Of a DNA stretch of 24,283 nucleotides, positions 1 to 20,223 are shown one piece after another (within the stretch, counting starts at the first letter, position 1; every line of letters starts with the position of its first letter). The notes under the pieces are model-generated. The model did no database searches and was not told where the DNA came from. It saw only the letters and a program-made list of their open reading frames with translations. The stretch comes from Methylocystis sp. (GTDB lineage: Bacteria > Pseudomonadota > Alphaproteobacteria > Rhizobiales > Beijerinckiaceae): positions 1 to 24,283 of the forward strand of contig JALHNR010000015.1 of NCBI GenBank assembly GCA_022843525.1. The letters are read 5' to 3'. Made by a program: the position numbers and the translations under genes.

Positions 1-641
1 TCGGACTCAAATTCACATCTCGATTATCCAGGGCGATGCGTCGATGGATGCCTCCGATCTCTGGAGAGCCTTAGCGGCGATTGAGCCAAGCGAGCGTTCG
101 TTCGACCAACGCCGTGCGCGAGGATGAATTCCAAGGTATCGATTTCGGAGGACCGCAAGCCTCGCTCGCGCTATTGCGGAAGCGAGCGGTGTGGCGCCCC
201 CTTAGCATCGACAGTCACGCGGGAAAGGCAATCCGTTCTCAGCCGCGACGTTCACTCACACGCGCCAATCACGTCACCCTTTTATAGCGGGCGTTGCTTG
301 CTATTACCGCACCGAGCGGCTTGCGTGTCGCAGCTTTCGTTGACAACGAAGGAAATTGGTGGATCATCGCGCCTGCGAGGGTGGCGATCCCTCTTTCAGG
401 CGGTATGCCCAAGCATCGCGGACGGCTCTTCAAAGCCGAGGATTCCGGATGCCGTCTTTATATCGACGTCTGTCTATGGACTTGACCGCTCGGCTCTACA
501 TTTGGCGGCGCGCCCCGGAGCGTCTGTTGTCGCGCCAGCAAAGCTGCGCGCGCAGCACGCGGCGGCTTTCTCATTGCGCCTCGCCTTGAACGCAGGCCGG
601 CGGGCGCTTCGAATCCATCCAAAATCAAAAGGAGAAAGCCC

Positions 642-1619
642 TTGGCTTCCGCGATCATTCGCATTGTTCTCTTAACGAGCGCCCTGGCGCTTGCAATAGG
701 CGCGCCGCAGCTGCGCGCCGAACCTGCGACGCCCATCAAGGGGACCGCCTATGTGACCTCGTGGTTCGGCGGCGTCGTTTCCGTTATAGATCTCGCATCA
801 GGCGCACTGAAGAAGAAAATCCCAGTCGGCATCCACAATCATAACGTCACGCTGCGTCCCGATCAGAAACAAGCTTGGGTCACGAACAACAACGCGGGAA
901 CCCTATCCATCATCGATACGCAAGCAAATAGCGTGATCAAGTCGCTGCCAACAGGAAAGGGTCCGCGACACATCTTTTTCAGCGCCGATGGCAAGGAAGC
1001 ATACGTTACGAACGAGTTCGACGACCGGGTGGAAATTTTTGACGCGCAGGCGGGTGCATCGCTTGGCGTCGTCAAGGCGGGCTCGATGCCGCATTTCGCG
1101 CTCGCTTCAGGCGACAGGCTTTTCGTCTCGAATTTCGGCGGCGGCGACGTGACGGTGCTCTCACGCGCAAAACGCCAGGCGCTCGCGACGATCGCTGTCG
1201 GAACGGGGCCGCTGGGCCAAGGCGCGACCAAGGACGGCAAGCGCGTCTATGTCGCCTGTCACAACGCCAATCACGTCGCCGTAATCGACGCCGAAAGCCT
1301 TCGGCGGATAGCGGATGTCGAGACCGATGCGGGCCCGGTGCAAGTCACGGTCGCACCAAATCAGACCTTCGCTTATGTCGCTAATGACGGGGCGGGCACG
1401 GTGCAGAAAATCGACCTTGCCGTGAACAAAGTCGTCAAAACGATCTCCATAGCGCCGGACGCGGGCAGTCACGGCGTCGGCTTCGCCGGCGACGGTCGCT
1501 GGCTCCTCATCACCAATACGGGAGCCAACAGCCTCTCGATCTTCGACACGCAGACGGATGAGATTGTGAAGACAATCTCCGTTCCGACAGCGCCTGAAGG
1601 CGTTGCGGTCCGGCGTTGA
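642..1619 (+). CDS. Secreted YVTN-family 7-bladed beta-propeller repeat protein
   Basis: An N-terminal signal peptide (MASAIIRIVLLTSALALAIGAPQLRA) is followed by seven roughly 40-aa repeats. Each repeat has the YVTN signature: AYVTS, AWVTNNNAGTLSIID, AYVTNEFDDRVEIFD, LFVSNFGGGDVTVL, VYVACHNANHVAVID, AYVANDGAGTVQKID, LLITNTGANSLSIFD. An AAGGAG Shine-Dalgarno sequence sits 8 nt upstream of the ATG, and the TGA stop is at 1617. Confidence 0.75.
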   Translation: MASAIIRIVLLTSALALAIGAPQLRAEPATPIKGTAYVTSWFGGVVSVIDLASGALKKKIPVGIHNHNVTLRPDQKQAWVTNNNAGTLSIIDTQANSVIKSLPTGKGPRHIFFSADGKEAYVTNEFDDRVEIFDAQAGASLGVVKAGSMPHFALASGDRLFVSNFGGGDVTVLSRAKRQALATIAVGTGPLGQGATKDGKRVYVACHNANHVAVIDAESLRRIADVETDAGPVQVTVAPNQTFAYVANDGAGTVQKIDLAVNKVVKTISIAPDAGSHGVGFAGDGRWLLITNTGANSLSIFDTQTDEIVKTISVPTAPEGVAVRR

Positions 1620-1906
1620 AAAGCATCTTTGTTGCGAAACGGGGGAGACGCTCGCAATTCGATGGCGCCAGACTGCCCGAATCAGTCTTGTTCTCTTTAG
1701 CTATAACGGCGCTTCGAAATTCCACGGACTATCGTCCGTGCCGCGGGCGTCGTTTAGCAGCTTTCCCTGCCCGCAGCGGATCAGAGACTTAGTTGCGCCG
1801 CAAAAAATCCCAGCCGTTCATGAGGATGGCATTTCCCTCAAGTGTTGCTACATTTGGCTGCGGTACGCGTTTGTCCCGCACCCGCGTTAATTTCGCCTGA
1901 GCCGTG

Positions 1907-2608
1907 ATGGAAATTATGCAACGATCTAATGCAGAGTGGCTGACGGCGCTTCAGGAGGGCGGTCGAGACCAACAGTTAGCGCTTGCGGACCTTCGAGCGC
2001 GACTGCTTGCGGCAATTCGGGCCTATTTGGCGAAAGGCTACGCCACGCAAGAATCAACGCGTTCAGATGAAGCGCAGCACCTTGCTGAAGACTGCGCACA
2101 AGAGGCCATTCTCATTATACAATCAAAACTTGGAGACTTTCGCGGCGAAAGCCGCTTTATGACTTGGGCTTATTCAATCGCAATCAGAGTCGTGCTCGGA
2201 GAGCTGCGCCGCCGTCGCTGGCGAGAAGCTACGATCGAGCGCGCTCAGCTTGGACAGACTTTGCCGGCTTGGCCGATTCAAGAACCGGGGCCGGAGCGCA
2301 GTCTACAGCAGCGCGAAGCGTGGACTCTACTGGCGCGACTTATCGGCGCCAAGCTTACTCCCTTGCAACGGACTGCACTTGTCGCTCACGCTTTTCAGGG
2401 AATGCCCTTGGACGAGGTCGCCGAATGGTTGGGTTCTAATCGGAATAGTCTTTACAAACTCATCCACGATGCGCGTAAACGGCTTAAGCAGGCTTTGCTC
2501 GAAGAAGGCGTGACGCACAAAGATCTTATTGCCGTGTTTGACGAGCCAAAATCGGGAACCCATCTCCATTCGGAGGGTAAGACTTCCTCCGTTCAACGCA
2601 TCTTATAA
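1907..2608 (+). CDS. ECF-family RNA polymerase sigma-70 factor
   Basis: Region 2-like (DCAQEAILIIQSKL..F.G.S.F.TWAYSIAIRV) and region 4-like (LTPLQRTALVAHAFQGMPLDEVAEWLG.NRNSLYKLIHDARKRLK) sequences are both present. The size and architecture are typical of ECF sigma factors. The start could be the GTG at 1904 or the ATG at 1907 or 1916. Confidence 0.8.
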   Translation: MEIMQRSNAEWLTALQEGGRDQQLALADLRARLLAAIRAYLAKGYATQESTRSDEAQHLAEDCAQEAILIIQSKLGDFRGESRFMTWAYSIAIRVVLGELRRRRWREATIERAQLGQTLPAWPIQEPGPERSLQQREAWTLLARLIGAKLTPLQRTALVAHAFQGMPLDEVAEWLGSNRNSLYKLIHDARKRLKQALLEEGVTHKDLIAVFDEPKSGTHLHSEGKTSSVQRIL

Positions 2609-2614
2609 TCAGTC

Positions 2615-2875
2615 GTGCCGGAACCCGACATGAAACACAAAGACTTTACCCGCCTCATTGACACCGTCTTCGCCGCTAAGAGCGGAGAGGAGATGCTGTG
2701 CACGGAATATTTTGATGAACTTCCACGTTACGTCGATATTGAGGCATCCGGTCAGGACGCCGGAGCCTTATTGCCCGAGGTTAAACACCATATGCATCAG
2801 TGCCCCGAGTGCGAAGAGGTTTATCTCGCCCTTCTGAGACTCGTGAACGCAGAAAAAACTTTTCCTTCGAGGTAA
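2615..2875 (+). CDS. Small zinc-binding (ZAS-type) anti-sigma factor
   Basis: This 86-aa ORF lies immediately downstream of the ECF sigma gene, 6 nt after its stop. It carries a C-x27-H-x3-C-x2-C arrangement (MLCTEY ... HHMHQCPEC) that matches the RsrA/ChrR ZAS zinc motif. It has no transmembrane segment, so it is a soluble anti-sigma. Confidence 0.6.
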   Translation: MPEPDMKHKDFTRLIDTVFAAKSGEEMLCTEYFDELPRYVDIEASGQDAGALLPEVKHHMHQCPECEEVYLALLRLVNAEKTFPSR

Positions 2876-2987
2876 GACCTCAGAATTCCGTCGCATCTAA
2901 GTCGTATCGGATCGAACTGGTTGGCGCGCGCGATCGAATCGATCGCCGGCATTGTCCCCGGTTCTCCGCTCGAAGGAGTGTGATGCG

Positions 2988-3965
2988 ATGCTAAGAACCT
3001 GGGCGCAGTTGGGGATTTCACGTTCGTTCGCGTTTTTGCTCATGTGGCCAGGCGCACTTCTCGCCGCTAGCGCAGCCTCTGCCGCCGACCAACATTTGAT
3101 CACGCTCAAAGCAAGCGCAATGCCGTCGGGTCAGCTGGCCTATGAGATGGTCAGTCACAAGGTCAAATCCTCCACAGGAAAGGAAAGCGACCTTATGGAG
3201 CGGTATGCGAGCGGTCCTACCATCCCTGGTCCCACGCTCGTCATGAAAGAGGGGGACGTCGCTGAGGTGACTCTTCAACATGGGATCGCCGACTCGGCTT
3301 TGCCGGTCAGCATCCATGTCCACGGCGTGCACTTCAAGATCGACAGCGATGGCACCATGAAGGTTTTGAATGGCGTCGCCGACGAAGCTGCGTTCCCAGA
3401 CAAACCTTACACATACAAATGGACGGCCGCGCCTGGAACGGCAGGCACGTGGGCCTATCACGATCATGCATTCGGCAATCCGATGCTCGGAGCCGAGGAC
3501 AAGGGGCTGTTCGGTACGCTCATCATCAATCCGGCGAGCGGGAAGGTTCCTGCGCTCATCGATGGCAAGATCGTCGACGTTGATCTTGCCGATGTGAAAC
3601 GCGAATTCATTATTTGGATGCATGAAACGACCTTTTGGGGCCAGGAGCTCAATCATATCATCGAGGGCGGCAAGGAGATTCCGTTATGGACTAATCCGAC
3701 CGTCGGTGCGCGCCTGGGCGAAAAGGTTCGCTTCCACGTCATGGGGCTTGGCACCGCGTTCCATACTTTCCATCTCCATGCGCATCGCTGGATCGAGCCC
3801 GGAGCAACCGCCGCCGTTGACACCGTCAACATTGGTCCAATCAGCCGCACCTCGTTCATCGTGAAGGCCGGCGAGGGTGTTGGCCCCGGCGACTGGCACT
3901 ACCACTGTCACGTTATCCAACACATGCAGTCTGGGATGATGGGTGATTTCCGCGTCATCGAATGA
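2988..3965 (+). CDS. Secreted two-domain multicopper oxidase (2dMCO)
   Basis: All four canonical MCO copper motifs appear in order: HVHGVH, WAYHDH, HTFHLHAH and HYHCHVIQHMQSGMM (the HCH-x3-H-x4-M motif carrying the T1 Cys). The protein is about 325 aa, so it has two cupredoxin domains rather than three. A signal peptide (MLRTWAQLGISRSFAFLLMWPGALLAASAASAA) is present, and an AAGGAG Shine-Dalgarno sits 10 nt upstream of the ATG at 2988. Confidence 0.8.
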   Translation: MLRTWAQLGISRSFAFLLMWPGALLAASAASAADQHLITLKASAMPSGQLAYEMVSHKVKSSTGKESDLMERYASGPTIPGPTLVMKEGDVAEVTLQHGIADSALPVSIHVHGVHFKIDSDGTMKVLNGVADEAAFPDKPYTYKWTAAPGTAGTWAYHDHAFGNPMLGAEDKGLFGTLIINPASGKVPALIDGKIVDVDLADVKREFIIWMHETTFWGQELNHIIEGGKEIPLWTNPTVGARLGEKVRFHVMGLGTAFHTFHLHAHRWIEPGATAAVDTVNIGPISRTSFIVKAGEGVGPGDWHYHCHVIQHMQSGMMGDFRVIE

Positions 3966-3992
3966 TCAATGACGAACGGGGGAGTTAAAGGC

Positions 3993-5834
3993 ATGAACCA
4001 CGCAACAATCATGAACCGCGTATCCTTTCTGACGTTGGCCGTGGCGACGACCTCGCTCGCTGCGTCGCTGTCGGCGCAGGCGAAAGACGCCGTGAAATCT
4101 GACGACGTTATCATCAGCCGCCCCGGCGTCCTACCGTCGGCCGTGCTGGAGATGACCGACGAGCCCGGCAAATGGTTCAAGGATCCCAAGAGCGGCGGCT
4201 CGCTCGTTGTGGTGAAGCCTGGCGAGGCGGTGCTCATCAAGATGACGGACACCAATACGGATCACACCATCACCAGTCTTGCCTGGCAGCCGGGCGCGGA
4301 CAAATTCCCGGTCGATCAGGAGAAGCCGTCGAACGCCAGCGTCACGCAGACCTTCGACAAACCGGGGCTCTATGTCTTCACCTGCAAGGTTCATCCCTAC
4401 ATGTTCGGCGCCGTTGTCGTCGACGATCCGAAGACGGAAGGGCTGGACATCGGCGGCGAATTGCAGCTCGTGACCGGCGCCAAAGTTCCGACGACAAGCG
4501 ACATCGCCAAGAAGCTGCTGCGCACCTTCTTCGTCGCCACGACGCCGGCGCTATGGCGCGACTATCGGCAGCCGAAGTGGGAGGTGAAGCTTCCCGATCT
4601 CGGACTCAATCTCGGCGGCGCGCAGATCAATCTGAGCGCGCTCAGCCTCTCGGCGCCGAACACGCTGCTGACGCCCCAGACGCCCGGCGTCGGCGAGGTC
4701 TGGGTCAACACGCAGTTTGAAGGCGTGAGCGGCAAGACGAAGTTCGGAACGGCGACGCAAATCGACGCGACGGACTGGACGCTCAAGAAAAAAGTCAAGG
4801 GCGTCGAGCAGAATATGAACAATCCCCACAATATGTGGCCCGATCCGACATATAAATACATTTATCAGACGGAATGGTTCGACAAGCGGCTGACCACCTT
4901 TGACCGCGAGAGCGGCAAAGTTCTTAACACACAGGTCGTTGGACAAAATCCGTCTCATGTGATGACGAGCCCGATAACCGGCATGCTCTATGTCGCCATC
5001 AATGGCGAGGACCGCGTGGCGAAACTGTCGCCTGGCGAATTCCCTTCGGCGATGGGCAACATTAATGTCGGCTCGCATTCCGGCCCGCACGGCCATCACC
5101 TCACCGACGACGGCAAATATATGATGACGCCGAACGCGCTGGCGGGAAGCGTTACCGTCGTTGATCTCGCGACCGAGAAAGCGACGGAAATTCCGACCGG
5201 CGGCGTTATCCCGATCGCGATCTGGAGCGACATGAACCATAAGGGCTATGCCGCCAATCTGCTCGGCACGCCCCCCGCCATGCTCTCCTCATTGACGGTG
5301 ATCGACATTGACAACAAGAAGAAGGTCAAGGACATCGACCTCGCTGCCGATTACGATCCGATCAGCGGCGCGCACAAGGGCGAAGCTTATGGCCTGCTTC
5401 CGATCCAGACCCCGGTGAGCCCTGACGGCAAATACGTCGTTACGGCGAACACGTTGAGCGCCACGGTCACGATCGTCGATGTGAAGACGGACAAGGTGGT
5501 GAAAAGCCTGCCCTGCGAAGCAGGCTGCCACGGCGTCAACTTCGGACACAAGAAGGGAGGCGGCTATTACGCCTATGTGGCGAGCAAATTCGCCAATGAC
5601 TTGATCGTTATCGACATGGATAAGCTCGAAGTTGTAGGCCGCATTCTGCTCGCGGATTCTAAGGACGGTCAGATCAACGCGCATAACGGCATGGGTGGAC
5701 AGGGCGTGTTGCCCTTGCCGATCGTCGAGCGGGGCATGCTTGCGCCCACGCTAAAACTCGCGGGAACAGGCAAGTTGAGCGCCGAAGTCGAGGGATGGCT
5801 CAAGCTTCTAACCAAGGAGCAACGCGGCAACTGA
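3993..5834 (+). CDS. Secreted fusion protein: N-terminal type-1 (amicyanin/pseudoazurin-like) cupredoxin plus C-terminal YVTN beta-propeller
   Basis: A signal peptide (MNHATIMNRVSFLTLAVATTSLAASLSAQA) leads a cupredoxin domain with His (DHTITS) ... FTCKVHPYMFGAVVV. This is a C-x2-H-x2-M blue-copper site. About 420 aa follow, carrying YVTN repeats (LYVAINGEDRVAKL, YMMTPNALAGSVTVVDL, YVVTANTLSATVTIVDV, AYVASKFANDLIVIDM) and several His-rich loops. A GGGGGAG Shine-Dalgarno precedes the ATG at 3993. Confidence 0.7.
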   Translation: MNHATIMNRVSFLTLAVATTSLAASLSAQAKDAVKSDDVIISRPGVLPSAVLEMTDEPGKWFKDPKSGGSLVVVKPGEAVLIKMTDTNTDHTITSLAWQPGADKFPVDQEKPSNASVTQTFDKPGLYVFTCKVHPYMFGAVVVDDPKTEGLDIGGELQLVTGAKVPTTSDIAKKLLRTFFVATTPALWRDYRQPKWEVKLPDLGLNLGGAQINLSALSLSAPNTLLTPQTPGVGEVWVNTQFEGVSGKTKFGTATQIDATDWTLKKKVKGVEQNMNNPHNMWPDPTYKYIYQTEWFDKRLTTFDRESGKVLNTQVVGQNPSHVMTSPITGMLYVAINGEDRVAKLSPGEFPSAMGNINVGSHSGPHGHHLTDDGKYMMTPNALAGSVTVVDLATEKATEIPTGGVIPIAIWSDMNHKGYAANLLGTPPAMLSSLTVIDIDNKKKVKDIDLAADYDPISGAHKGEAYGLLPIQTPVSPDGKYVVTANTLSATVTIVDVKTDKVVKSLPCEAGCHGVNFGHKKGGGYYAYVASKFANDLIVIDMDKLEVVGRILLADSKDGQINAHNGMGGQGVLPLPIVERGMLAPTLKLAGTGKLSAEVEGWLKLLTKEQRGN

Positions 5835-5945
5835 ACCATTGCAATTCAGCTCCGATGGATAGCCCCGAGCAGGGCTTCCATCGGGGTGATCAGTTGTTAC
5901 CGCAACAGACGCAGCACTCGCCGAATAATGTTAGGAGAAACGCGA

Positions 5946-6632
5946 ATGATCGAGCGTCAAGCCAACAAGACAGAACATCTGGTTTCGGCCCATGCAGATC
6001 GATTTCGTGACGGCCCGAGTCGTTTAATGGGTTTGGACAACAACTTTAGCGGAGTCCGAAGGTCGAAGCGTACCCAGGCTGAAGCTGAAGCGGCTGTGCG
6101 GGTTCTTATCGAATGGGCAGGCGACGATCCGAACCGCGAAGGTTTGATCGATACGCCTGAGCGGGTGGCGCGTTCTTATCGCGAATTGTTCGCTGGCTAC
6201 GCCGCCGATCCTCGCGAATATCTCAAGCGCACGTTCGAAGAAGTGGGCGGTTATGACGAGCTGGTCGTATTGAAGAACATCCGCGTCGTTACTTTTTGCG
6301 AACATCACATGCTGCCGGTGATCGGACGCGCGCATGTCGGTTACCTGCCGACAAACCGGGTCGTGGGAATCTCCAAACTGGCGCGGGTCGTGCACGGATT
6401 CGCGCGTCGATTACAGATTCAGGAGAAGCTAACCGCTGAGATCGCCGAAGCCATCCAGGAAATTCTCGAGCCGCAAGGAGTAGGAGTGGTCGTCGAGGCC
6501 GAACACAGTTGCATGACCTTGCGTGGCGTGAACACGCTCGGATCCACATTGACCACTAGCCGGTTACTCGGCGTAATCCGCGACGACGCCCGCTCACGAG
6601 AGGAATTCCTCGGCATGGTGCGCCGAGCCTAG
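5946..6632 (+). CDS. folE: GTP cyclohydrolase I (FolE type I)
   Basis: FolE signature stretches are present: [29 protein letters not shown] (the CEHH zinc site), GISKLARVV and QIQEKLT. An AGGAGAAAC Shine-Dalgarno precedes the ATG at 5946. The ORF's upstream extension to 5886 is probably not translated. Confidence 0.85.
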
Positions 6633-6704
6633 AATTTGGACCAGCGGCTGACGAAAGAAGCATTGGGAGCGGAACGCCATGGAAGATGGCATTCTCTAAG
6701 TTCT

Positions 6705-6765
6705 CCCGCTTGTAATTTTGCCTCGACCCGAGGGACCGGCTCTAGATGGAGACCGTTGCACGAGC
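6705..6765. repeat. Roughly 60-bp element also present at 19415-19478
   Basis: cttgtaattttgcctcgacccgagggaccggctctagatggagaccgttgcacgagcg is compared with cttgtaatttgtccccgagccaagggatcggctcgagatggagacctttgcccgaatcgcg. Both end with an ATGGAGACC start-like codon context. Confidence 0.5.
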
Positions 6766-7018
6766 GTTGTCGCCGATAATAGCTCGAGCCTTGAATCTGG
6801 AAGACGGGGGGTTTCCAAATCTGGAGATCCGCAACGGTGAGCTCGTTGGAACGATAGTTGCTTGTGCGGTAGAAATGCGCGCTGACCTGATCGTTATGCA
6901 GACCGATGGTCGCGATAGCGCTTTGGACTCGATCATCGGGAGCACAACCGAGCGCGTCATACACGAAGCGCCTTGCTCCCTAGATGACGTGAACCGAGAG
7001 CGTCTGTTTGGAAGGTAG
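6746..7018 (+). pseudogene. Universal stress protein (UspA-family) C-terminal fragment only
   Basis: ELVGTIVACAVEMRADLIVMQTDGRDSALDSIIGSTTERVIHEAPCSL matches the Usp C-terminal ATP-binding half (ADLIVMG..GR..L....GS..E.V...A.CPVL). An in-frame TAG lies immediately upstream of the first Met, so the N-terminal half is missing. Confidence 0.4.
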
Positions 7019-7057
7019 CGGCGACTCGGGAACTTTCACAGGGTGCTTTGCTTTTTG

Positions 7058-9409
7058 ATGCGCAGCGCCTGCCGGTTCGCTGCTGAGTTTCAGGAGGGCG
7101 TCGTGGAAAGCGCGCGTAAACTCTGGATCACGCTCATCGCCCTGTTGGTGCTCTCCTTTGCCGTGCTTCTGCTCATCGGCCGGGAAATAAGCGTCAAGGC
7201 GCCGCCTTTGCCCGAGCGCGTCGTTACGGAAACAGGACGCACGGTCTATACCCGTGCTGACATCGAGCGCGGGCGTCAGGTCTGGCAGTCCATCGGCGGC
7301 ATGCAGCTCGGCTCCGTCTGGGGCCATGGCGGCTACGTCGCGCCAGACTGGACCGCCGACTGGCAGCACCGAGAACTCGTCGCCATCCTGGACGCCTGGG
7401 CGCGCCGCGAGTTCGCGGCCGGCCGCTACGCTGATCTCAGCGAGGAGCAGCAGAGTTCTCTGCGGGGACGGCTGCGCCCGATGATGAGGCGAAACACCTT
7501 CGATCCGAAAACTGGGACAATTACTGTTTCTGAGGAGCGCGCTCAGGCGATCGACCTCGTCTCGAGCCACTATGAGAGCCTGTTCGGCGACGATCCGCGC
7601 AGTGCGGAACTTCGCGAGAACTACGCAATGAAGAACGGCACTGTCGACGACGCCGAGCATCGGCGGGCGCTAGGCGCCTTCTTCTGGTGGACCGCGTGGG
7701 CCGCGACCACGGAGCGGCCGGGAAGCCACGTCACCTACACCAACAACTGGCCGAGCGAACCGCTGGTCGACAACCGCCCGCCTGCGACCACCTTCATCTG
7801 GTCTGCGTTCAGCGTGGTATTCCTGCTTGCCGGCATCGGCCTGCTCGGCTGGCACCGCGCCGTCAGTCATGCACACGGCGCCGAGACGTGCGATGTGCCC
7901 GCGCGTGATCCGATGCGCAACGTAAGGGTCACGCCGTCCATGCGCGCGACCGCCAAATATTTTTGGGTGCTTCTTGCCCTGTTTCTCGTCCAGATCCTGT
8001 TCGGCGCCATAAGCGCCCATTACCAGGTCGAGGGGCAGCTGTTTTACGGCTACCCGATGGCGGAGATCCTCCCCTATTCGATCACCCGCACCTGGCACAC
8101 GCAATTGGCCGTGCTGTGGATCGCCACCGCCTGGCTCGGCACTGGGCTCTACATGGCGCCGGCGATTTCCGGGTACGAGCCCAAGTTCCAGGCGCTCGGC
8201 GTCAATGTGCTCTGGATCTGCTTGCTGATCATTGTGGTCGGCGCCTTCGCGGGCCAATGGCTCGCGGTCATGCAACGGCTGGGATTGGAACACAATTTCT
8301 GGTTCGGGCATCAGGGCTGGGAGTATGCCGATATCGGGCGTTTCTGGCAGTGGTTCCTTTTTATCGGCCTGCTGCTGTGGCTCTCCCTCGTCGGCCGCGC
8401 CTTGTGGCCGGCGCTACTGGCAAAAACTGAGTCACGCTCGATCGTCGCTCTTTTCTTCCTCTCGACGGTCGCAATTGGCCTGTTCTACGGCGCGGGGCTG
8501 ATGTGGAACGAGCATACGCATCTGTCGATGGTCGAATATTGGCGGTGGTGGCTGGTTCACTTGTGGGTGGAAGGGTTTTTCGAGGTGTTCGCCACCGCGG
8601 TCGTCGCCTTCCTGTTCACCCGCCTCGGCCTGGTCGCAGTCAAGCCGGCAACTTCGGCGGTGCTGTTCGCGACGATCGTCTTTATGGCCGGCGGCGTGAT
8701 CGGCACGCTCCATCATCTCTATTTCGCCGGCACTCCGATGTCGGTGTTGGCGCTTGGCGCCAGTTTCTCCGCGCTCGAAGTCGTGCCGCTCGCCTATATC
8801 GGCTTCGAGGCCTATGAGCATTGGCGGTTCTGCGGCGCCACGCCCTGGATGCAGCGCTATAAATGGCCCGTGCTGTTCTTCATCGCGGTCTCCTTCTGGA
8901 ATCTGGTGGGAGCCGGTCTGTTCGGTTTCCTGATCAACCCGCCGCTCTCGCTCTATTACATGCAGGGGCTCAACCTGACACCGCTGCACGGCCACACGGC
9001 GCTGTTCGGCGTCTATGGGATGCTCGGCATCGGCCTCGTGTTGTTCTGCCTGCGCGGAATGATGCCCGAACTCGTCTGGAACGAGAAGATCCTCAGCATC
9101 AGCTTCTGGTGCTTCAACGTGGGGCTGGGGATGATGGCGTTGTTCACGCTCCTGCCGCTCGGCACGCTGCAACTCCTTGCCGCGATCAATGAAGGTTATT
9201 GGTACGCCCGCTCTGAGCAGTTCATGCAGCAGCCGATCGTCGATCTTCTGGTATGGATGCGCGTGCCGGGCGACACGGTCTTTTCGATAGGCGCATTGGC
9301 CTTCGCCTGGTTCGTTGTCAGCCTGTGGCTCCGGCCGCGCCGCCAGCCTCATGAAGTGGAGCAGGAGGACAGGGAACTGGAGGCGGGACCGGCGAAGCGT
9401 GCGGCGTGA
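7058..9409 (+). CDS. norB: Quinol-dependent nitric-oxide reductase, single-subunit large NorB (qNOR/NorZ)
   Basis: The length is about 770 aa, as in qNorB. It has the N-terminal NorC-like periplasmic extension without a CXXCH haem motif. A heme-copper oxidase core with the His ligands follows: HLWVEGFFEVFATA, GTLHHLYFAG and FHQLDL-equivalents. Many transmembrane segments are present. The N-terminus aligns to the qNorB consensus: KLWITL, APPLPERVV, GGMQLGSVWGHGGYVAPDWTADW, TYTNNWPSEPL. The start is uncertain between the ATG at 7058 and the GTG at 7103; an AGGAGG Shine-Dalgarno lies just upstream of the latter. Confidence 0.9.
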   Translation: MRSACRFAAEFQEGVVESARKLWITLIALLVLSFAVLLLIGREISVKAPPLPERVVTETGRTVYTRADIERGRQVWQSIGGMQLGSVWGHGGYVAPDWTADWQHRELVAILDAWARREFAAGRYADLSEEQQSSLRGRLRPMMRRNTFDPKTGTITVSEERAQAIDLVSSHYESLFGDDPRSAELRENYAMKNGTVDDAEHRRALGAFFWWTAWAATTERPGSHVTYTNNWPSEPLVDNRPPATTFIWSAFSVVFLLAGIGLLGWHRAVSHAHGAETCDVPARDPMRNVRVTPSMRATAKYFWVLLALFLVQILFGAISAHYQVEGQLFYGYPMAEILPYSITRTWHTQLAVLWIATAWLGTGLYMAPAISGYEPKFQALGVNVLWICLLIIVVGAFAGQWLAVMQRLGLEHNFWFGHQGWEYADIGRFWQWFLFIGLLLWLSLVGRALWPALLAKTESRSIVALFFLSTVAIGLFYGAGLMWNEHTHLSMVEYWRWWLVHLWVEGFFEVFATAVVAFLFTRLGLVAVKPATSAVLFATIVFMAGGVIGTLHHLYFAGTPMSVLALGASFSALEVVPLAYIGFEAYEHWRFCGATPWMQRYKWPVLFFIAVSFWNLVGAGLFGFLINPPLSLYYMQGLNLTPLHGHTALFGVYGMLGIGLVLFCLRGMMPELVWNEKILSISFWCFNVGLGMMALFTLLPLGTLQLLAAINEGYWYARSEQFMQQPIVDLLVWMRVPGDTVFSIGALAFAWFVVSLWLRPRRQPHEVEQEDRELEAGPAKRAA

Positions 9410-11084: not shown

Positions 11085-11688
11085 TTGGAATTGATGATGG
11101 GCTGGCGCTCGGTCACTAACGCACACATCGAGCGCGCAGGTCGCGAGCCTCGCGTTAGAAGCCAGCGGAATGTCACGGAGGGGAGGGGAAGATCAATAGG
11201 CCTTCTCTTGCGACACCATTCCTTCTTCTACGCGGATTCCCCGCAGATTGCGAAGGCGTTGCGAGGAAAGCGTCGCGCGCCACCGGCGTGGGTTGCGCTC
11301 GGGGCGTTCCTCGCCCTTGTGACCGCGACGACATGGATATCGACGAGCTCTTCCGCGAACCGCCGCGGGCGGCTGAGCGATAGTGGCCGAATTCGGTAAC
11401 GCGATGGCCAAGCCGAACGCGCGTCACTGCCACTCGTGGTCAAATCGCGGCGCTCCCTGATCAGTGGTGCAGGATCCGTGCAACCTCATGATGGCGCTCC
11501 GGCCAGCGCGACAAGCATATCGACTCGGTCGTCACGAGCTCCATCAGCTGCGCCTCGGTAAAATCCTCTGTCGCTGCTGGCCTTTCAGGAATTACGAAAC
11601 ACCGCGCCGTCCCGCTGCTGTCCCACACCCTGATCTCCGTTTCCTCGGGCAGTGGACGCCAACCTCGGCGAGCACTTTCCGCGGCTCG

Positions 11689-11960
11689 CGGGCCGCGCGG
11701 GCGCGAAATACCGGATCGGCAATCCCAGCACCGGCCATGGGAAGCACGAGCAAAGCGAGCAGATGATCAGGTTGTGCACCTCGGGCGCGTTAGCGACGGC
11801 CCGCAGGTGCTCGCCCTCGGCGCCGGCCATTCCCTCGGGCAGGTCGAGTTTGGCAATTGCGGCCGGGGTGTCGGCCAGGAGCCGGGCCAAGAAGCCCGCG
11901 TCGGTCCACGCTCGCACGACGATCTTTCTTGCCGTTGAGCGGACGCGGTCCTGCGGATAC
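11689..11960 (-). pseudogene. Nitrile hydratase alpha-subunit-like remnant (N-terminus missing, C-terminus divergent)
   Basis: KIVVRAWTDAGFLARLLADTPAAIAKLDLPEGMAGAEGEHLRAVANAPEVHNLIICSLCSCFPWPVLGLP aligns to NHase alpha. It retains the metal-binding C(S/T)LCSC claw motif. The expected N-terminal roughly 80 aa are absent, and the frame is not alpha-like beyond GLPIRYF. Confidence 0.5.
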
Positions 11961-11972
11961 TTGAATGGCCGC

Positions 11973-12643
11973 TCATGCAGGTTCCTCCAAGTATATCTCG
12001 AACAGTTCGGCGTAAAGCGTCTGCGCGCCGGGTTCCGCGCGCGGACCCCACAATTCGGTCGGCGTGAACTCGACGATGTAGACGGGCATTGGATCGCCGA
12101 TGCCATCGCCAGTGTGCCAGAAGTAGACACAGTCGCCTTCGAGCACCTGCGCCACCGTGCCGCTCCGCCCCCGCAGATAGCCGGGCAGGCGAGTGTGCGC
12201 GCCAACTGGGACATTTGCGATCCGGACCCGCTGCCCGACGGCGAACTTCGAATGCGCGACGTCGCGCCGCGGGCTGTCGCCGTTACGTAGATATGCGATG
12301 ATCTGCTCGTCGATGGCTTCAGCCCGATCGGATCCCCTGGCCGAGCGCCGTCCGGCCTGGCCGCTTCGCCACGCAGTTAGCTTGTCCGCGAGGCTAATTC
12401 GTCCTCGCGCAGGTATCCTTGTCGACGAGGAATGGGGATGCCGCTGAGCCACTTCTCGTAGTAACGGAATTTGAAGTAGTCGAATGGATCCATCGCCTCG
12501 GCGCCAGCGCGCAGATCCGCCCATGTCCACATGTCGCGGAAGGCGGTCGGCACGTAGGCGATCGCGCAGGCCGGCACGGACGAGTCGAGATGGCCCGAGA
12601 GAGCCATCATCGCCACATAGATGCCGAATATCCGATTTCCCAC
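11973..12643 (-). pseudogene. Nitrile hydratase beta-subunit-like remnant, split by a frameshift
   Basis: The N-terminal piece (12377-12643: WTWADLRAGAEAMDPFDYFKFRYYEKWLSGI) sits in one frame. The C-terminal SH3-like piece (within 11973-12320: QRVRIANVPVGAHTRLPGYLRGRSGTVAQVLEGDCVYFWHTGDGIGDPMPVYIVEFTPTELWGP) sits in another. Both resemble NHase beta, and the frame changes near 12330-12420. Confidence 0.5.
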
Positions 12644-12817
12644 TGCCTCGGCAGGCTGGTTCAGAAAAAAGGGTCAATTCGGATCTGGAGCGCTTTTCCG
12701 ACGTTGTCCAAAATAGGCTCAGAGTTGTGGAAGGCAAAGGCCGCAACACGCCGACGGTGGAATCGGAGGATCAGGGACGACGCGCGCGGAAGATGCGGAG
12801 CGGCGGCGAATGAGCGC

Positions 12818-13261: not shown

Positions 13262-13975
13262 CTACTCTTCGCTGGCCAGCCCTTCCGCTTTACAGCGTTC
13301 GAGGACACCGGTCACGATGCGGTCGCACCGCGCGCCGGCGAAGGCGAAAACGTCGCTTAAGCCCGCGTCCATCTCCTGGGCAAGGCTTTCGCGCAACAGG
13401 CTGCTAGCTCGGAAGAAGCGCGTACGCACCGTCGCCTCGGGGATCTCCAGCGCCTCGGCGGTTTCTTCGACGCTCATCTCCTCGATCGCGCGCAGCATGA
13501 ACACCGTCCGGAAGGCCTCCGGCAGAAGGTCGATGCGCGCCTCCAAGAGCTTGCGCATCTGAACCCGCATCATCGATTGTTCTGGGCTACGCTCAGGCTC
13601 ATCGTTCAGCGCTGTCTGGGCTTCAGATTCATGGGGCGTCATGGCAGCTTCCAAAGGAATGATCTGGGCACTCTTTCGCCACAAGCGGCCGAGCGCTTCA
13701 TGGGTCGTGATCCGCACAAGCCAGGTATAGAGCTTGCTCTCGGCGCGATAGTTTCCAAGCGCGCGCCACGCCCGCAGATAGGTGTCCTGGACGACATCCT
13801 CCGCCTCCGCATCATTGTGCACGATGCTACGCGCCGTACGGAACAGAAGCTGGTTGTGCCGTCGCATGATGGCTTCGAACGCCACTCCGTCACCGTCAGC
13901 GGCGCGCGAGATCAGCTCTGCCTCCGGCGTGGTTTTCGATAAGCTATTTGCCGCCTGACGCTGAAGTGATTGCAT
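13262..13975 (-). CDS. ECF-family sigma factor with a C-terminal extension
   Basis: ELISRAADGDGVAFEAIMRRHNQLLFRTARSIVHNDAEAEDVVQDTYLRAWRALGNY matches region 2. LPEAFRTVFMLRAIEEMSVEETAEALEIPEATVRTRFFRA matches region 4. About 40 extra C-terminal residues follow, including two Cys (ARCDRIVTGVLERC). A GGAGG Shine-Dalgarno precedes the ATG at 13975, and the ORF's upstream extension reaches 13987. Confidence 0.8.
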   Translation of the reverse strand: MQSLQRQAANSLSKTTPEAELISRAADGDGVAFEAIMRRHNQLLFRTARSIVHNDAEAEDVVQDTYLRAWRALGNYRAESKLYTWLVRITTHEALGRLWRKSAQIIPLEAAMTPHESEAQTALNDEPERSPEQSMMRVQMRKLLEARIDLLPEAFRTVFMLRAIEEMSVEETAEALEIPEATVRTRFFRASSLLRESLAQEMDAGLSDVFAFAGARCDRIVTGVLERCKAEGLASEE

Positions 13976-14195
13976 TTGCGCCTCCATTCATTGAACAGGT
14001 AGGCTACCGGCGTGCCTTTGCCGGCGCTGCCGCTATAGGGATCGCGCGCGCCGCGTCTTCCGGATCGCGCAGCAATTCCATCATGCCCGCGACCATCGCG
14101 AAAGCGATCAACGCGTCGATGAGTATCACGGCTCCTTTCCGGGCGTACGGGCGATGGCGGGGCGCCGTTCCGTCGTCGCCCTTGGCGTTGTCCGA

Positions 14196-14609
14196 CTAAT
14201 GTTCGAACTTCGTTGGGAAGGCGGCGATCAAACCGTTGGTCAGGGCATCGGCCAGCATCATCATATGAGCCTCCGCCTTTCCATATTCGGCGATGCCGTT
14301 GGCATATTTGCCCTGCAAAAGCCCCGTGGCGTAGACCACAGTTGTGTCGATATGCCCCTTGAGCCTGTCGCGTACCTTGGTTTGCGGCCAGTTCTCGTTC
14401 GCCTTGGCGAGAAAATCGGCAATTTCCTGCGCGTTTGCGTAGGCGGCTGCGACGGACTTGTCGGTGGCCGGCTTGTCGCCGGCCTTGGCGGCTTTCACGA
14501 CCTCGACGGCTGCGCCGATATGCTCCTGAAGCAGCTTGGTGAGCGCGTTACCAGCTGCATCGCCATAGAAGGGCTTGATAGCGTCGCCGATATCGGGCTG
14601 GTTCTGCAT
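14196..14609 (-). CDS. Hypothetical Cys-free helical (probably periplasmic) protein, 137 aa
   Basis: The ORF has no recognisable family. Its predicted secondary structure is alpha-helical, and it is Ala/Lys-rich with a Met-rich stretch ([10 protein letters not shown]). Its ATG overlaps by 1 nt (TGATG) the stop of an upstream 43-aa ORF that is purely a signal peptide. Confidence 0.45.
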
Positions 14610-14740
14610 CAGTCGCGCTGCATGTTAACGGAATAGGCGGCGGTCGGGCGGAAAACGGGAGTAGCCATAAGTGCGGCGGCGAAGCCCGCAAGGGCGAGGC
14701 GGCGATTAACGGCCGGGTGGAACATCTGCACGCGTGTCAT
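14609..14740 (-). other. 43-aa ORF encoding only a Tat/Sec-like signal peptide, probably the frameshifted 5' part of the downstream gene
   Basis: [43 protein letters not shown] has a strong AAGGAGAA Shine-Dalgarno 6 nt upstream. It ends 1 nt into the next ORF's ATG. A signal peptide with no mature domain is implausible as a standalone gene. Confidence 0.35.
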
Positions 14741-14809
14741 GACGGTTCTCCTTGGTCGATCAGTTTGCGTAGCGGCCGGTGTGATCGACTCGATGCGGCC
14801 CCGTACATT

Positions 14810-15137
14810 CGATGCGACCCTTTCGCGCTGCGTTCCCGTTGCACGAGATTTTTTTGGGGGAAAAGAGAAAGCTTCCGAGCAGGTCGAGCGGCAGAGTACG
14901 GTCAACTCTAAAACATCCTGCGACAACACAAGCGCTGGATCGTAAACGGGCTGCGGAGGCGCTAAAACTCATAGCGCCTCCGCTATCGCACCAGCGTGAA
15001 TTTACGGGGGTTCCCGACGGTACGATATTTCTGTACAGAGCGGTAGCTGCCGCTCAGTTTTTCTCCGCACTCGCGCCCTGTATATTAGATGCGACCATTC
15101 CGCGCTGCGTTCCCGATGCAGGAATATTTTTGGCTTT
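14810..15137. repeat. Two copies of a roughly 50-bp direct repeat about 280 bp apart (14810-14862 and 15089-15137)
   Basis: gtacattcGATGCGACCcTTtCGCGCTGCGTTCCCGtTGCAcgAGATTTTTTTGG is compared with gtatattaGATGCGACCaTTcCGCGCTGCGTTCCCGaTGCAggAATATTTTTGG. On the minus strand both read GGGAACGCAGCGCG.AA.GGTCGCATC. Confidence 0.5.
14943..14974. other. Strong hairpin (12-bp perfect stem, 7-nt loop)
   Basis: GCGGAGGCGCTA-aaactca-TAGCGCCTCCGC sits in the intergenic region between the split secreted-protein gene and DUF488. Confidence 0.4.
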
Positions 15138-15981: not shown

Positions 15982-17063
15982 CGCTGCGTCCTCCCGGTTC
16001 CAAGAAGCGCTTCTCCCAAACAGATGGATCCGAAGTCTACGCCCGGCGCCAGCACCACGGAAGCCTAGGTCGTCGGCAGCCGGAAGGTGAAGGTCTCCAG
16101 AAAATTCAGTTCGACGGCCGTGCTGGAATAGCTCGTGTAACCAACGGATATGTCCCGACCGATATCTAACTCGAAGTCACCGCTGCAGGTCGTGCGCACG
16201 ACGCTGCCTTCAATGGCGGGCGCCAGATGATCCCTCCGTCCACCATACGCTCAAGATGGTGAAAAACCGGATAGCCCTGGACGCTTCCGCCACTCGCGGC
16301 GGTGTAGGTGTCTAGCCCGAGCACGAGCGCGTACGGACCGTGTCGCCGGCGAGCCGCAACTGGCTGACCCGCCTGAGCGAGGCGCTTGGGTAACCCGGAC
16401 GTTGGAAGGCAGCACAACGCCCTGATTGCTGCTGGCCTCGCGAATGGTGAATGCCTGCCGCAGCGTACCCATCGGACACAGCGCGATCCTTTGCAAAGGG
16501 GATTTCCCGGGCACCCAATCTGAATCCATTGCGCCGCGCTCCACGTCGTCGATCGCTTGCCGCGTCAGACCGTCTGGAATACGATCCAGAACGACTTGCC
16601 GACCCTGAAACAGCAGATGACGACGGGGACGAAGATGACTGCTGAATGGGACAGGTTCACGCTACGGAAATTGCCATGCTGAGGCTGATCCTGATAGCAA
16701 ACAGCCACGTTACCATTTTGCCAAGCCTTTGTATCAACCCGCCAATTCTGAATCCAACAATGGGCACGCAATTAGCCGATGAAGACGGCAAAGATGCAGC
16801 TTGCGTGATCGGTGAGCAATTTTCTGTCTTTCACCAAGGATGGCGTCCCGTCTGATGTTCTTCCTGCTACTTTCACCATTGACAGGCTTAGGTCCGACTC
16901 AGTTATCCTTGTCACGGCGATCGAGTTCGCGCTCAACCGCCTGCGGCTGATGACCCCTGCTCTACATTGTGTCGGAGTCCGTCGTTGCTCTAGTCGACAA
17001 CCGCGGATGATGTCGCGTAATACCGCCCAGTAGCGATTATAGAACGGAGCGAGGGTGGCGATC

Positions 17064-18689: not shown

Positions 18690-19310
18690 TCAAGCTCGGG
18701 ATTTGAAGCTCGGCGTGATGCGGCCCCCGATGACGGCGATGAGCATGACGAGGGTCGCGACGCCGACGCGGGCCCCCAAGGTGCCCATAGCGTCAAGGCC
18801 CATCGCTTCGAGATGCGTGAGCAAATTCCCGATGAAGAGAAGCGCGAGAGCGGCAACCATGGGTAAGTTGCGCCAGTTCCGCCCCGTGGCGATCTCGCGC
18901 GCGACAACGAAGATAAAGACAGTCGGGAAAGCGAGATCGAGCGCCGCGGAGAAAAGCGCAGGCGTGCTATTCGAAGTCAGGACGGCGATGCGCCCAAGCA
19001 GCCAGAGAGCGACGAGTCCGGTGAGGGGCGCGCCTTGTAAGGACAGCCGACCAGTCCAGTTTGGAATAGCCGTCAGCAAAAAGCCCGCGACGACCGCGCC
19101 GCCAAAACCGAAGGCCATTTCATGCGCGTGCCAGAGAGAGGGCGGGAAGCGTGTCGGCAGTTCGGCCGTCTCCAGATAGGCGATGGAGAGCGGCAGCCCC
19201 ACGGCGGCCCAGAGTGCGGCAAAGAGAAAGAACGGACGGAATCCCGCTGAAAGAAAGATCGCCAGAGGGTTTTGACTCGCCTGAGCGCGACATCGCTGAA
19301 TCGGAGGCAT
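18690..19310 (-). pseudogene. nnrS: Truncated second copy of nnrS (N-terminal roughly 203 aa only)
   Basis: The protein is near-identical to the NnrS N-terminus: MPPIQRCRAQASQNPLAIFLSAGFRPFFLFAALWAAV ... WHAHEMAFGFGG ... GGRITPSF. It then diverges and stops after KSRA. The nucleotide homology to 10460-11084 is evident by eye. The remaining about 200 codons are absent. Confidence 0.7.
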
Positions 19311-20223
19311 CGCTGACTTCCCCGGAATGAACGCTCCGCGCCATCTAATGAATTTACTCGGTTCTTTCCTACTTCCTGTTGCGGCGGTCGCTACACAGCA
19401 AGCAGACGCGGCCTCCTTGTAATTTGTCCCCGAGCCAAGGGATCGGCTCGAGATGGAGACCTTTGCCCGAATCGCGCAGCGTGGGTAACGATACATCGAA
19501 GAGGGGTCTGCGTCATTTTACAGGATTTGCATTGCCAAAGCGGTCTTCTGCATCTCGATAGCGCCTGACAAAGAAATCGAATTTGGGCTCGGGCACGGAG
19601 TGGCCGAAACCATCACCCTCCGCCGCATCGCTCTGTAGTGTGTCGCGTGAATGACTTCGGCGAGACGGATTTCATGGATCCGCTCCATCAAGGCGCTGAA
19701 TTTCGGCTTCCTTCTTGAGCCAGAAGCGCCCGATTTGCTCGGCGATAATACGCTCGATCTCGGGCACGAGCCGAATGCGCCTTCCGGCGTTCCTCGCTGT
19801 TGTTGTGCGAGACTCGAAATAAGTCGTGTGCACAGAAAACGCGACGCCATACGAAAGTAAGGTTGACCTTGGGATATCGAATCGCCTGAGGCGGCTCTCG
19901 AAACAGGTCACGCCCGCTGGCGACCGCCGTTACAACGCACGGATTTCATCATTTTGCCCAGAGACATAAACCTCGACGCCGTCGAGACGCGAAACGATCG
20001 GTCGGATGCTTTCGGCGGGCAGCATTGAAAAGGCCGTAGAAAGCGCATCGGCGATCGTCGCGGTCTGAGCGATCCATTCCGCTTTACAGCCTGTGAAGAT
20101 GAAGCGTCGCTACCTCGCCGACGGCGCGATCACTTGCGCCACGCCGGTCATGGCGGCCGAAGAGCTGGGCGCACGTCGACTTGTCGTGCTGCCGACCGGT
20201 CACGCCTGCATGCAGGTTCGTGA

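Follow-up and report, generated by a model that had tools for sequence, protein, structure and literature searches.

A predicted two-subunit copper oxidase with a cupredoxin-propeller protein, under putative sigma/anti-sigma control, in Methylocystis and other methanotrophs

A cluster of genes for predicted copper proteins lies at positions 642-5834 of a 24,283-nucleotide stretch of Methylocystis sp. DNA (contig JALHNR010000015.1 of assembly GCA_022843525.1), which is referred to here, at its full length, as the window. An earlier note on this DNA had described five co-directional, tightly spaced genes, named g1 to g5 in the following, as an uncharacterised periplasmic copper redox system in a nitric oxide (NO) detoxification neighbourhood. 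Calls of open reading frames (ORFs) and Pfam/NCBIfam HMM searches placed all five predicted ORFs on the + strand with the identities claimed, and Pfam matches confirmed folE, qNor (NorB_cytochrome_c-like and COX1) and NnrS downstream. The spacing is tight between g2 and g3 and between g4 and g5, but not between g1 and g2 (a gap of about 285 bp) or g3 and g4 (112 bp). No known RNA family was detected by Rfam in positions 1-7100. The features of the locus are as follows.

642-1619, + strand: g1, secreted seven-bladed YVTN/YncE-type propeller (Pfam and NCBIfam matches)
1670-1688, + strand: terminator-like hairpin with a T-run, 3' of g1 (consensus scan)
1822-1857, + strand: conserved element 5' of the sigma gene g2 (cross-locus conservation)
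1904-2608, + strand: g2, extracytoplasmic function (ECF, group 4) sigma factor (Sigma70_r2, r4_2 and TIGR02937)
2577-2605, + strand: promoter-like motif within the 3' end of g2, 5' of g3 (position weight matrix (PWM) and regex scans)
2630-2875, + strand: g3, soluble 81-aa zinc anti-sigma (ZAS)-like factor (alignment of 22 orthologues)
2872-2900, + strand: promoter-like motif 5' of g4 (22 distinct sigma-bearing intergenic sequences)
2889-2990, + strand: 5' leader of g4 (sequence conservation and minimum free energy (MFE) fold)
2988-3965, + strand: g4, secreted SLAC-like (type B) two-domain multicopper oxidase (2dMCO) (Pfam, alignment with PDB 3t9w)
3993-5834, + strand: g5, 613-aa secreted protein of a cupredoxin and a seven-bladed propeller (ligand alignments, AlphaFold2 model)
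5853-5885, + strand: intercistronic hairpin between g5 and folE (compensatory changes in relatives)
5946-6632, + strand: folE, a GTP cyclohydrolase I copy (PF01227, E 7e-70)

Relatives of g5 were collected in a scan of one genome per species, which gave at least 579 loci, and the best 80 loci were examined. A methanotroph clade was delimited at 65% identity or more; it includes Methylocystis, Methylocella, Methylocaldum, Methylococcus, Methylomicrobium, Methylotuvimicrobium, Methylobacter, Methylohalobius and others, and 49 of its unique loci have upstream sequence. In the neighbourhood analysis the sigma factor, the anti-sigma factor, g4 and g5 were co-conserved, but g1, qNor and NnrS were not. 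The conserved core is composed of the ECF sigma factor g2, the anti-sigma factor g3, the 2dMCO g4 and the cupredoxin-propeller protein g5, together with the folE copy in Methylocystis. The idea that an uncharacterised copper redox system of the periplasm is controlled by a sigma/anti-sigma pair is supported, and no description of such a system from a methanotroph was found in the literature searched.

The true start of g4 is the ATG at 2988, preceded by the ribosome-binding site GAAGGAG. Its product has the Pfam domains Cu-oxidase_3 and Cu-oxidase_2 and a complete set of copper ligands: the motifs HVH, HDH, HLH and HCH...H...M align with those of SLAC structures, the best PDB match being 3t9w (E 3.5e-32). 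Because the trinuclear centre is intact, g4 is predicted to reduce O2. Orthologues of g4 in the methanotroph clade are 66-98% identical.

The true start of g5 is the ATG at 3993, with the ribosome-binding site GGGGGAG, which gives a protein of 613 aa; residue numbering below begins at the ATG at 3969. Behind a signal peptide come the N-terminal peptide SDDVIISRPGVLPSA and a cupredoxin domain at about 58-152, whose type-1 copper ligands H99, C139, H142 and M145 are invariant in 15 sequences, archaeal ones included, and reach at least 90% conservation in a more diverse set of 26 members. The ligand loop C-K-V-H-P-Y-M has the short C-x2-H-x2-M spacing that is found in amicyanin. Amicyanin and pseudoazurin models match g5 weakly (18.3 bits against a cut-off of 110.2 for amicyanin), and a g5 profile reached pseudoazurin 2ux6 at E 2.7e-4. 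The AlphaFold2 model (pLDDT 86, pTM 0.86) consists further of a conserved linker (about 153-280), a seven-bladed propeller (about 281-585) and C-terminal helices. In the propeller, C516 and C520 (in C-x3-C-H-G), W290, Y299 and W303 are invariant; H287, H330, H374, H521, Q480 and N389 are at least 90% conserved, and H376 is invariant in the smaller set of 15. The conserved His and Cys residues stand at the starts of the innermost strands of successive blades, just past the conserved Pro of the YVTN repeat, and this placement in the model leads us to infer that the central channel holds a metal or cofactor site.

Homologues of g5 carry the labels 'YVTN propeller', 'copper oxidase' and 'multicopper oxidase type 3' elsewhere. 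A profile search of the PDB sequences returned no specific relative, and an exact-protein look-up gave no match. Neither for the g5 family nor for the g4-g5 pair was a solved structure, a curated family model or a description found in the literature searched. The parts are of known kinds (an ECF/ZAS switch, a SLAC-type multicopper oxidase (MCO), a blue-copper domain and a seven-bladed propeller); what is new is their combination and the His/Cys site of the propeller.

The two secreted proteins g4 and g5 are closely associated in genomes. A g4 orthologue lies directly 5' of g5 in all 49 methanotroph-clade loci with upstream sequence, counting L054, where the genes overlap by 1 nt and the pair was scored by hand. 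In Ca. Nitrosocosmicus (L076) two g4-like genes stand directly 5' of the g5 homologue, and the order in a Nitrospira locus is g5, a larger MCO and a g5 paralogue. An exhaustive profile search with g5 recovered 257 representative clusters at E <= 1e-30, and many of the representatives reach 930-1110 aa. Of ten such long proteins that were scanned, seven have a 2dMCO N-terminal to the g5-like part (Cu-oxidase_3 and Cu-oxidase_2, or Cu-oxidase_2 alone in P0361). The fusion P0363 is 51% identical to g4 over residues 55-343 (E 4e-103), with every copper ligand kept, and 41% identical to g5 over residues 363-964 (E 6e-137). The named members of the fusion clusters belong to Nitrososphaera, Nitrosocosmicus and Amycolatopsis, and a further archaeal fusion (L088) is on a 1.84-Mb contig. 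The order of the domains in the fusions is the order of the genes in methanotrophs. Since the two are fused into one polypeptide in archaea and in Amycolatopsis, these comparisons are strong evidence that g4 and g5 would act as a single enzyme, and the fusions argue for a fixed assembly of MCO, type-1 cupredoxin and propeller. A g4-like MCO of Nitrosopumilus (P0214), by comparison, has no adjoining propeller gene.

The archaeal fusions bear on a reductive reading, in which g5 would be related to nitrous-oxide reductase, with its domains in reversed order, or would act as NO reductase or dismutase, and would receive electrons through its cupredoxin. Archaeal 'CuZ domain-containing proteins' with two or three N-terminal cupredoxin domains, which we take to have the same architecture as the fusions, have been listed as candidates for N2O reductase (PMC13464753, 2026), and g5 itself gives weak matches to the L-NosZ model NF052460 and to TIGR04244. 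These scores are far below the cut-offs (61.7 against 700 bits and 16.8 against 625 bits, respectively), and the authors of that list themselves deemed the proteins unlikely to be N2O reductase (PMC13464753). The g5 cupredoxin is of the single-Cys type 1 and not a CuA domain, and the propeller has four to five conserved His and two invariant Cys. The CuZ centre has seven His ligands, and CuA has two Cys. In addition, nosDFYL/R were not among the gene matches near the loci examined, and an O2-reducing MCO would be an odd obligatory partner for a reductase. We therefore consider a reductive role like that of NosZ quite unlikely.

The nearest relatives of both g4 and g5 outside the methanotrophs are found in ammonia-oxidising archaea, Nitrospira and Nitrosospira. 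A more distant g5 clade (44-49% identity) spans Nitrososphaera, Nitrospira, Nitrosospira, Acidobacteriota, Chloroflexota and Rokubacteria; its Nitrospira members include the comammox metagenome-assembled genome (MAG) CG24E. When the neighbours in the distant clade were annotated, no partner recurred across phyla, and annotation of the neighbours of the loci in Methylocella, gammaproteobacterial MAGs, Chloroflexota and Blastocatellia gave no recurrent functional partner either. The exception is a gene for H-NOX, a haem-NO-binding protein, that adjoins the g5 homologue, in convergent orientation, in three Ca. Angelobacter loci (L072 at 11797-12378, L073 and L075). NVIE_019240, which follows MCO4_b, a gene induced by copper limitation in N. 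viennensis, was considered as a g5 homologue; this could not be shown.

Such a wide distribution in soil bacteria beyond nitrifiers and methanotrophs would also suit an oxidase for a substrate without a nitrogen link, with the MCO as its built-in terminal oxidase. Reduced sulfur (methanethiol, sulfide or thiocyanate), Mn(II) or Fe(II) might be oxidised, or an amine by way of a cofactor derived from Cys, Trp or Tyr. Copper propeller enzymes for thiocyanate and methanethiol exist; C516, C520, W290, Y299 and W303 are invariant in g5, and its type-1 loop has the length of that in amicyanin, which partners methylamine dehydrogenase. However, no conserved neighbour of the pair belongs to sulfur or amine metabolism, and the methanethiol oxidase model gave a negligible match, to g1 only. 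This reading would also leave the enrichment of the family in methane and ammonia oxidisers without explanation, and we consider it unlikely.

The regulatory half of the core was found 5' of g4 in 21 of the 44 methanotroph-clade loci that have at least 2.5 kb of upstream sequence, namely in Methylocystis, Methylocella and a group of gammaproteobacterial MAGs. The g2 product exceeds the cut-offs of PF04542 (34 bits), PF08281 (34.4 bits) and TIGR02937 (79.2 against 42.9 bits). The gene g3 starts 22 nt beyond the g2 stop codon, probably at the ATG at 2630. That its product is a ZAS anti-sigma factor was borne out by an alignment of 22 orthologues, in which one Cys and the HHxHQCxxC motif are invariant and form the ZAS H-x3-C-x2-C signature, but not by any curated model: no Pfam family was reached at E <= 0.01 (no zf-HC2), and the RsrA model TIGR03988 gave 20.3 bits against a cut-off of 62.5. 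No obvious hydrophobic segment was seen on reading the sequence. The g3 family comprises just 73 clusters in 5.8e9 proteins, and the few with an organism name come from methanotrophs or a gammaproteobacterial MAG; g3 thus looks like a sensor dedicated to this module.

All 22 distinct sigma-bearing intergenic sequences, from alpha- and gammaproteobacterial lineages alike, have a bipartite motif, GTAAGA-N16-CATCTAA, in front of g4. Its fuller form is GTAAGA(C/T)-N14-GCATCTAA (GTAAGAC in the window), with fixed spacing and an unconserved spacer. The motif occupies the gap between g3 and g4; it overlaps the stop codon of the anti-sigma gene in the alpha lineages and lies 22 nt past it in the gamma lineages. 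A second copy, GTAAGA-N16-CATCT[TC]A, stands 5' of g3 at the same place in 13 distinct loci (GTAAGAC-N14-GCATCTTA in the window). By our calculation about 0.04 exact matches would be expected by chance in the 2.9 Mb scanned. The PWM scan gave no other site in the window at threshold, and g1, g2, qNor and NnrS are without the motif. It is inferred that g2 recognises GTAAGA-N16-CATCTAA. The element 5' of g2 differs from this sigma-type motif. It reads GGCATTTCC...GTTGCTACAT and is common to the Methylocystis and Methylocella loci, the gammaproteobacterial MAGs having a related GTTGTTAC box; it is probably the promoter or operator of g2.

The leader of g4 may add a further level of control. The box CGTCGCATC (2889-2897), in the region of the -10 box, and GATGCGATG (2982-2990), within which the g4 start codon lies, are reverse complements of each other, and both boxes are invariant from Methylocystis through the gammaproteobacterial MAGs. 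An inner GC hairpin lies at about 2924-2950. The MFE fold closes the 9-bp leader helix with a z-score of just -1.46, and since the arms are invariant there is no covariation. Read-through transcripts from g2-g3 could hide the g4 start codon in this unproven helix, while transcripts initiated by the sigma factor would be without the 5' arm. An out-of-frame mini-ORF (ATG CGA TGC TAA) overlaps the g4 start.

The folE copy follows g5 in 11 Methylocystis loci. In L007 and L044 the hairpin between the two genes differs in sequence but is preserved by compensatory changes. In a Methylocella MAG (L013, 6225-11833) the anti-sigma gene is duplicated, and folE lies between the copies, 5' of g4, with a sigma motif of its own; the arrangement arose independently of that in Methylocystis and ties folE to the regulon a second time. 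The gene is probably co-transcribed with g4-g5, and because of its position after g5 past a conserved hairpin and of the motif in L013 it is counted here as a predicted member of the regulon. A literature search on SigR/RsrA and folE yielded nothing, and the idea that folE is a known member of ZAS regulons was dropped.

Extra motif sites in relatives point to further candidate members of the regulon, namely folE and the gene of a secreted 182-aa protein. The third perfectly spaced motif (GTAAGAT...CACATCTAA) precedes this latter gene (L006, 5369-6018, - strand), which ends 8 nt to the left of window position 1. The protein matches no Pfam family and has two C-terminal hydrophobic segments that were read as transmembrane helices. 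Its mature N-terminus RSDDVFLSRPGVPPSA matches that of g5, KSDDVIISRPGVLPSA, and the shared peptide is conserved only in the g5 clade with a separate MCO partner; it may serve as a docking peptide or as a membrane tether.

A different regulator is associated with the pair in other methanotrophs. In 13 of the 44 loci, all from gammaproteobacterial methanotrophs (within L029-L059), the sigma pair is missing and a SufR-like regulator gene lies beside g4, mostly in divergent orientation (for example L029, 7981-8664, - strand). Its product has a winged-helix domain and a domain with four invariant Cys and two His, and it resembles SufR over its full length at 81.8 bits, under the cut-off of 178.8. 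Since this regulator stands in for the sigma pair, two unrelated, predicted cytoplasmic Cys-based sensors would govern one and the same pair of periplasmic proteins.

The main rival to a nitrogen substrate is copper handling; copper is known to target thiol and Fe-S sensors. In that case g4/g5 would oxidise periplasmic Cu(I) to Cu(II) or process copper for uptake, and the signal would come from cytoplasmic Cu(I), which would drive Zn out of the anti-sigma factor or damage the Fe-S/Cys4 regulator. A high need for copper is common to methanotrophs and ammonia oxidisers, and genes of RND (resistance-nodulation-division) efflux, TolC and FixH/YtkA types are found upstream of the locus on plasmid pGW6_2 and in M. 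rosea SV97. The 2dMCOs (MCO4) of N. viennensis are the genes most strongly induced under copper limitation, and a role as Cu(I) oxidase in uptake was proposed for them (PMC7785015). However, the g5 site is a true His-Cys-His-Met site of the electron-transfer type and not of the chaperone type, and a Met-rich insertion of the CueO type was not seen on reading the g4 sequence. Motif scans placed no copper ATPase or CopC/D gene within the regulon. A catalytic propeller would also seem superfluous for outer-sphere oxidation of Cu(I). On balance a copper role is rather doubtful.

We favour a reading in which g4 and g5 are the two subunits of one periplasmic copper oxidase under ECF/ZAS control that acts on a nitrogen compound, and we assign to it, as a whole, a probability of roughly 45%. 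A small substrate would be oxidised at the His/Cys-lined metal site in the propeller channel of g5, and the electrons would move first to the amicyanin-like type-1 site of g5, next to that of g4 and on to the g4 trinuclear centre, where O2 would be reduced to water. The genes would stay off as long as the Zn/thiol anti-sigma factor g3 is active. Once a thiol-reactive signal in the cytoplasm inactivates it, the released sigma factor g2 would read the GTAAGA-N16-CATCTAA promoters 5' of g4-g5(-folE), and also the same motif 5' of g3, which would provide negative feedback. The substrate would be a reactive nitrogen intermediate arising when methane monooxygenase co-oxidises ammonia, that is, hydroxylamine or derived nitroxyl or NO, and the module might thus be a device for the detoxification of nitrosative stress. 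Taken by themselves, the architecture and the regulation are probable, and the nitrogen substrate is a tentative proposal that we hold somewhat below even odds.

Hydroxylamine, nitroxyl or NO is favoured for four reasons. The family is prominent in organisms in which hydroxylamine arises from copper monooxygenases; the sensors, of either kind, belong to types that react to thiol- and Fe-S-reactive species; qNor and NnrS adjoin the present copy; and H-NOX adjoins the g5 homologue in Angelobacter. A broader proposal, that the g4/g5 complex and the single-chain versions of Nitrososphaera and Nitrosocosmicus constitute a new class of copper enzyme whose His/Cys metal centre in the propeller would oxidise hydroxylamine, nitroxyl or NO with O2, seems to us rather less likely than not.

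Several observations weigh against this nitrogen reading. The g5 family is also present in Acidobacteriota, Chloroflexota, Rokubacteria and Amycolatopsis, none of which is known to form hydroxylamine. The adjacency of qNor and NnrS represents one plasmid lineage, and that of H-NOX one genus. The sensors would react equally to Cu(I) or to oxidants. The closest precedent for the chemistry is Nmar_1354 of Nitrosopumilus maritimus (PDB 9CCK), an MCO4-type 2dMCO with a 'dangling' cupredoxin 13.5 A from its type-1 site, which oxidises NH2OH to nitroxyl (HNO) with O2 (PMC11761707). The archaeal g4-like MCOs gave no match to 9CCK at E < 1e-10, the presence of 9CCK in the searched set being unconfirmed, and the hydroxylamine analogy may hold at the level of enzyme class only. 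With the same proviso about the searched set, 9CCK was not among the 60 listed of the 120 PDB matches of g4.

The first propeller, g1, is a neighbour and not a member of the conserved module. The earlier note had counted it in a single co-regulated five-gene system with three secreted proteins, linked to NO detoxification. The genes are indeed co-directional and adjacent here and in four near-identical loci or plasmids, and g1, too, has His at channel-lining positions when its sequence is read. Nevertheless, g1 is confined to the three nearest loci, L005, L006 and L010, and two M. rosea plasmids and is missing from 53 of the 56 methanotroph-clade loci; PWM and regex scans of the window gave no sigma-type motif 5' of it at threshold; and the gap between g1 and g2 holds the terminator-like hairpin at 1670-1688. 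The hairpin is suggestive only, as terminator-like sites in the region are in total no more numerous than in shuffled sequence. For these reasons g1 was placed outside the unit. Since qNor and NnrS likewise lack the motif and are not conserved with the module, the five-gene version is very improbable. The g1 product has a signal peptide and matches TIGR02276 (156 bits, cut-off 27.85) and PF21783 (E 1.4e-22). It best resembles accessory propellers of the LutB/TIGR03866 type (233.8 bits, under the cut-off of 287.3); the ABC transporter or pyrroloquinoline quinone dehydrogenase expected beside such a propeller is absent from the window and from pGW6_2.

The whole window is plasmid-borne and potentially mobile, as it carries ParA and ParB/KorB partition genes (22169-23972) and is 98% identical to pGW6_2 of Methylocystis rosea GW6, a MOBP-mobilizable plasmid of 219 kb; a second M. 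rosea plasmid matches it equally well. On pGW6_2 both g3 and g5 are labelled 'hypothetical protein' by PGAP. A further copy of the locus, 82% identical, is on a 3.5-Mb scaffold of M. rosea SV97, which is presumably chromosomal, and both versions occur together in one MAG. When the methanotroph-clade loci were compared, qNor and NnrS adjoined only the plasmid-type copies. The NO-detoxification neighbourhood is circumstantial and not conserved. A tblastn search of PLSDB with g4 and g5 hit only the two M. rosea plasmids, besides two weak matches of g4 alone to Streptomyces MCOs. The MCOs on the Methylocystis SC2 plasmid, which are induced at high ammonium (PMC9600857), had been considered as direct evidence; they are unrelated and were set aside.

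Other genes of the window were also noted. A second ECF sigma gene (13262-13987, - strand) follows a 137-aa ORF without a family match, and the related motif GGAACG-N15-GCATCTAA ends near it at 15085; the region 13262-15095 has the look of a paralogous ECF system whose -10 element is similar. Between NnrS and this sigma gene are nitrile-hydratase alpha- and beta-like genes (11585-12749, - strand), which are missing from the PLSDB annotation table of pGW6_2. A second, truncated NnrS ORF (18690-19496, - strand) matches only the first half of the family model. A major facilitator superfamily (MFS) transporter gene is at 17055-18647; a similar gene occurs near the module in L009 and L044, the one in L044 with a sigma motif about 0.9 kb upstream. 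Between folE and qNor, a 90-aa ORF (6746-7018; ...ADLIVMQTDGR...GSTTERVIHEAPC...) resembles by eye the C-terminal part of a universal-stress-protein-type domain and may be a gene remnant.

It has long been asked how organisms that possess copper monooxygenases deal with hydroxylamine and NO, be it in the absence of haem enzymes or next to them. The question is sharpest for the ammonia-oxidising archaea, which are without hydroxylamine oxidoreductase, and it also concerns the emission of N2O from methanotrophs. The module described here is a concrete and, with its 257 representative clusters, widespread candidate. The natural single-chain fusions make it directly testable, the sigma/anti-sigma switch offers a genetic handle, and the plasmid location marks a trait that is able to move among Methylocystis strains. 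If the nitrogen reading is true, methanotrophs and soil ammonia-oxidising archaea would have a haem-free route for hydroxylamine, nitroxyl or NO, and biology would have gained a new source or sink for NO, HNO and N2O. Even with copper or another substrate, an undescribed three-module copper oxidase with a new catalytic propeller would be new enzymology.

The components can be compared with several known systems. The switch resembles SigR-RsrA pairs, in which a small soluble anti-sigma factor with HxxxCxxC and one upstream Cys is encoded right after an ECF sigma factor and a sigma-dependent promoter precedes the regulatory genes. It differs in that g3 has no zf-HC2 match and falls below the RsrA cut-off, its family is tiny and tied to one output operon, and the feedback promoter is 5' of the anti-sigma gene and not of the sigma gene. 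The g4 protein shares the two-domain layout, the four HxH motifs and the C-terminal type-1 site of the SLAC-type (type B) Streptomyces laccases (3t9w, 3cg8). Those enzymes work alone on phenolics, whereas g4 has a cupredoxin-propeller protein as an obligatory partner, separate or fused, and its signal peptide, as read from the sequence, is apparently of the Sec type and not twin-arginine.

The seven-bladed beta-propeller fold of g5 is that of NosZ and L-NosZ; in g5, however, the domain order is reversed, the cupredoxin is type 1 instead of CuA, conserved His are fewer, two Cys are invariant, and nos accessory genes are absent. In methylamine dehydrogenase with amicyanin, a seven-bladed propeller subunit likewise hands electrons to a cupredoxin with a C-x2-H-x2-M loop. 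There, a small subunit of its own carries the tryptophan tryptophylquinone cofactor, the free amicyanin reduces a cytochrome rather than an MCO, and a relationship to g5 is undetectable in sequence beyond the level of the fold. As for Nmar_1354, g4 and its archaeal relatives are SLAC-like, with 9CCK absent from the matches listed for g4 and from those of the archaeal proteins at E < 1e-10, and the extra cupredoxin is on a separate protein (downstream in the fusions) that carries a propeller, which Nmar_1354 lacks. The two nevertheless have in common a 2dMCO with a trinuclear O2-reducing centre, one extra type-1 cupredoxin, which in g5 is likewise predicted to stand beside the type-1 site of the MCO, and a host that makes hydroxylamine by a copper monooxygenase.

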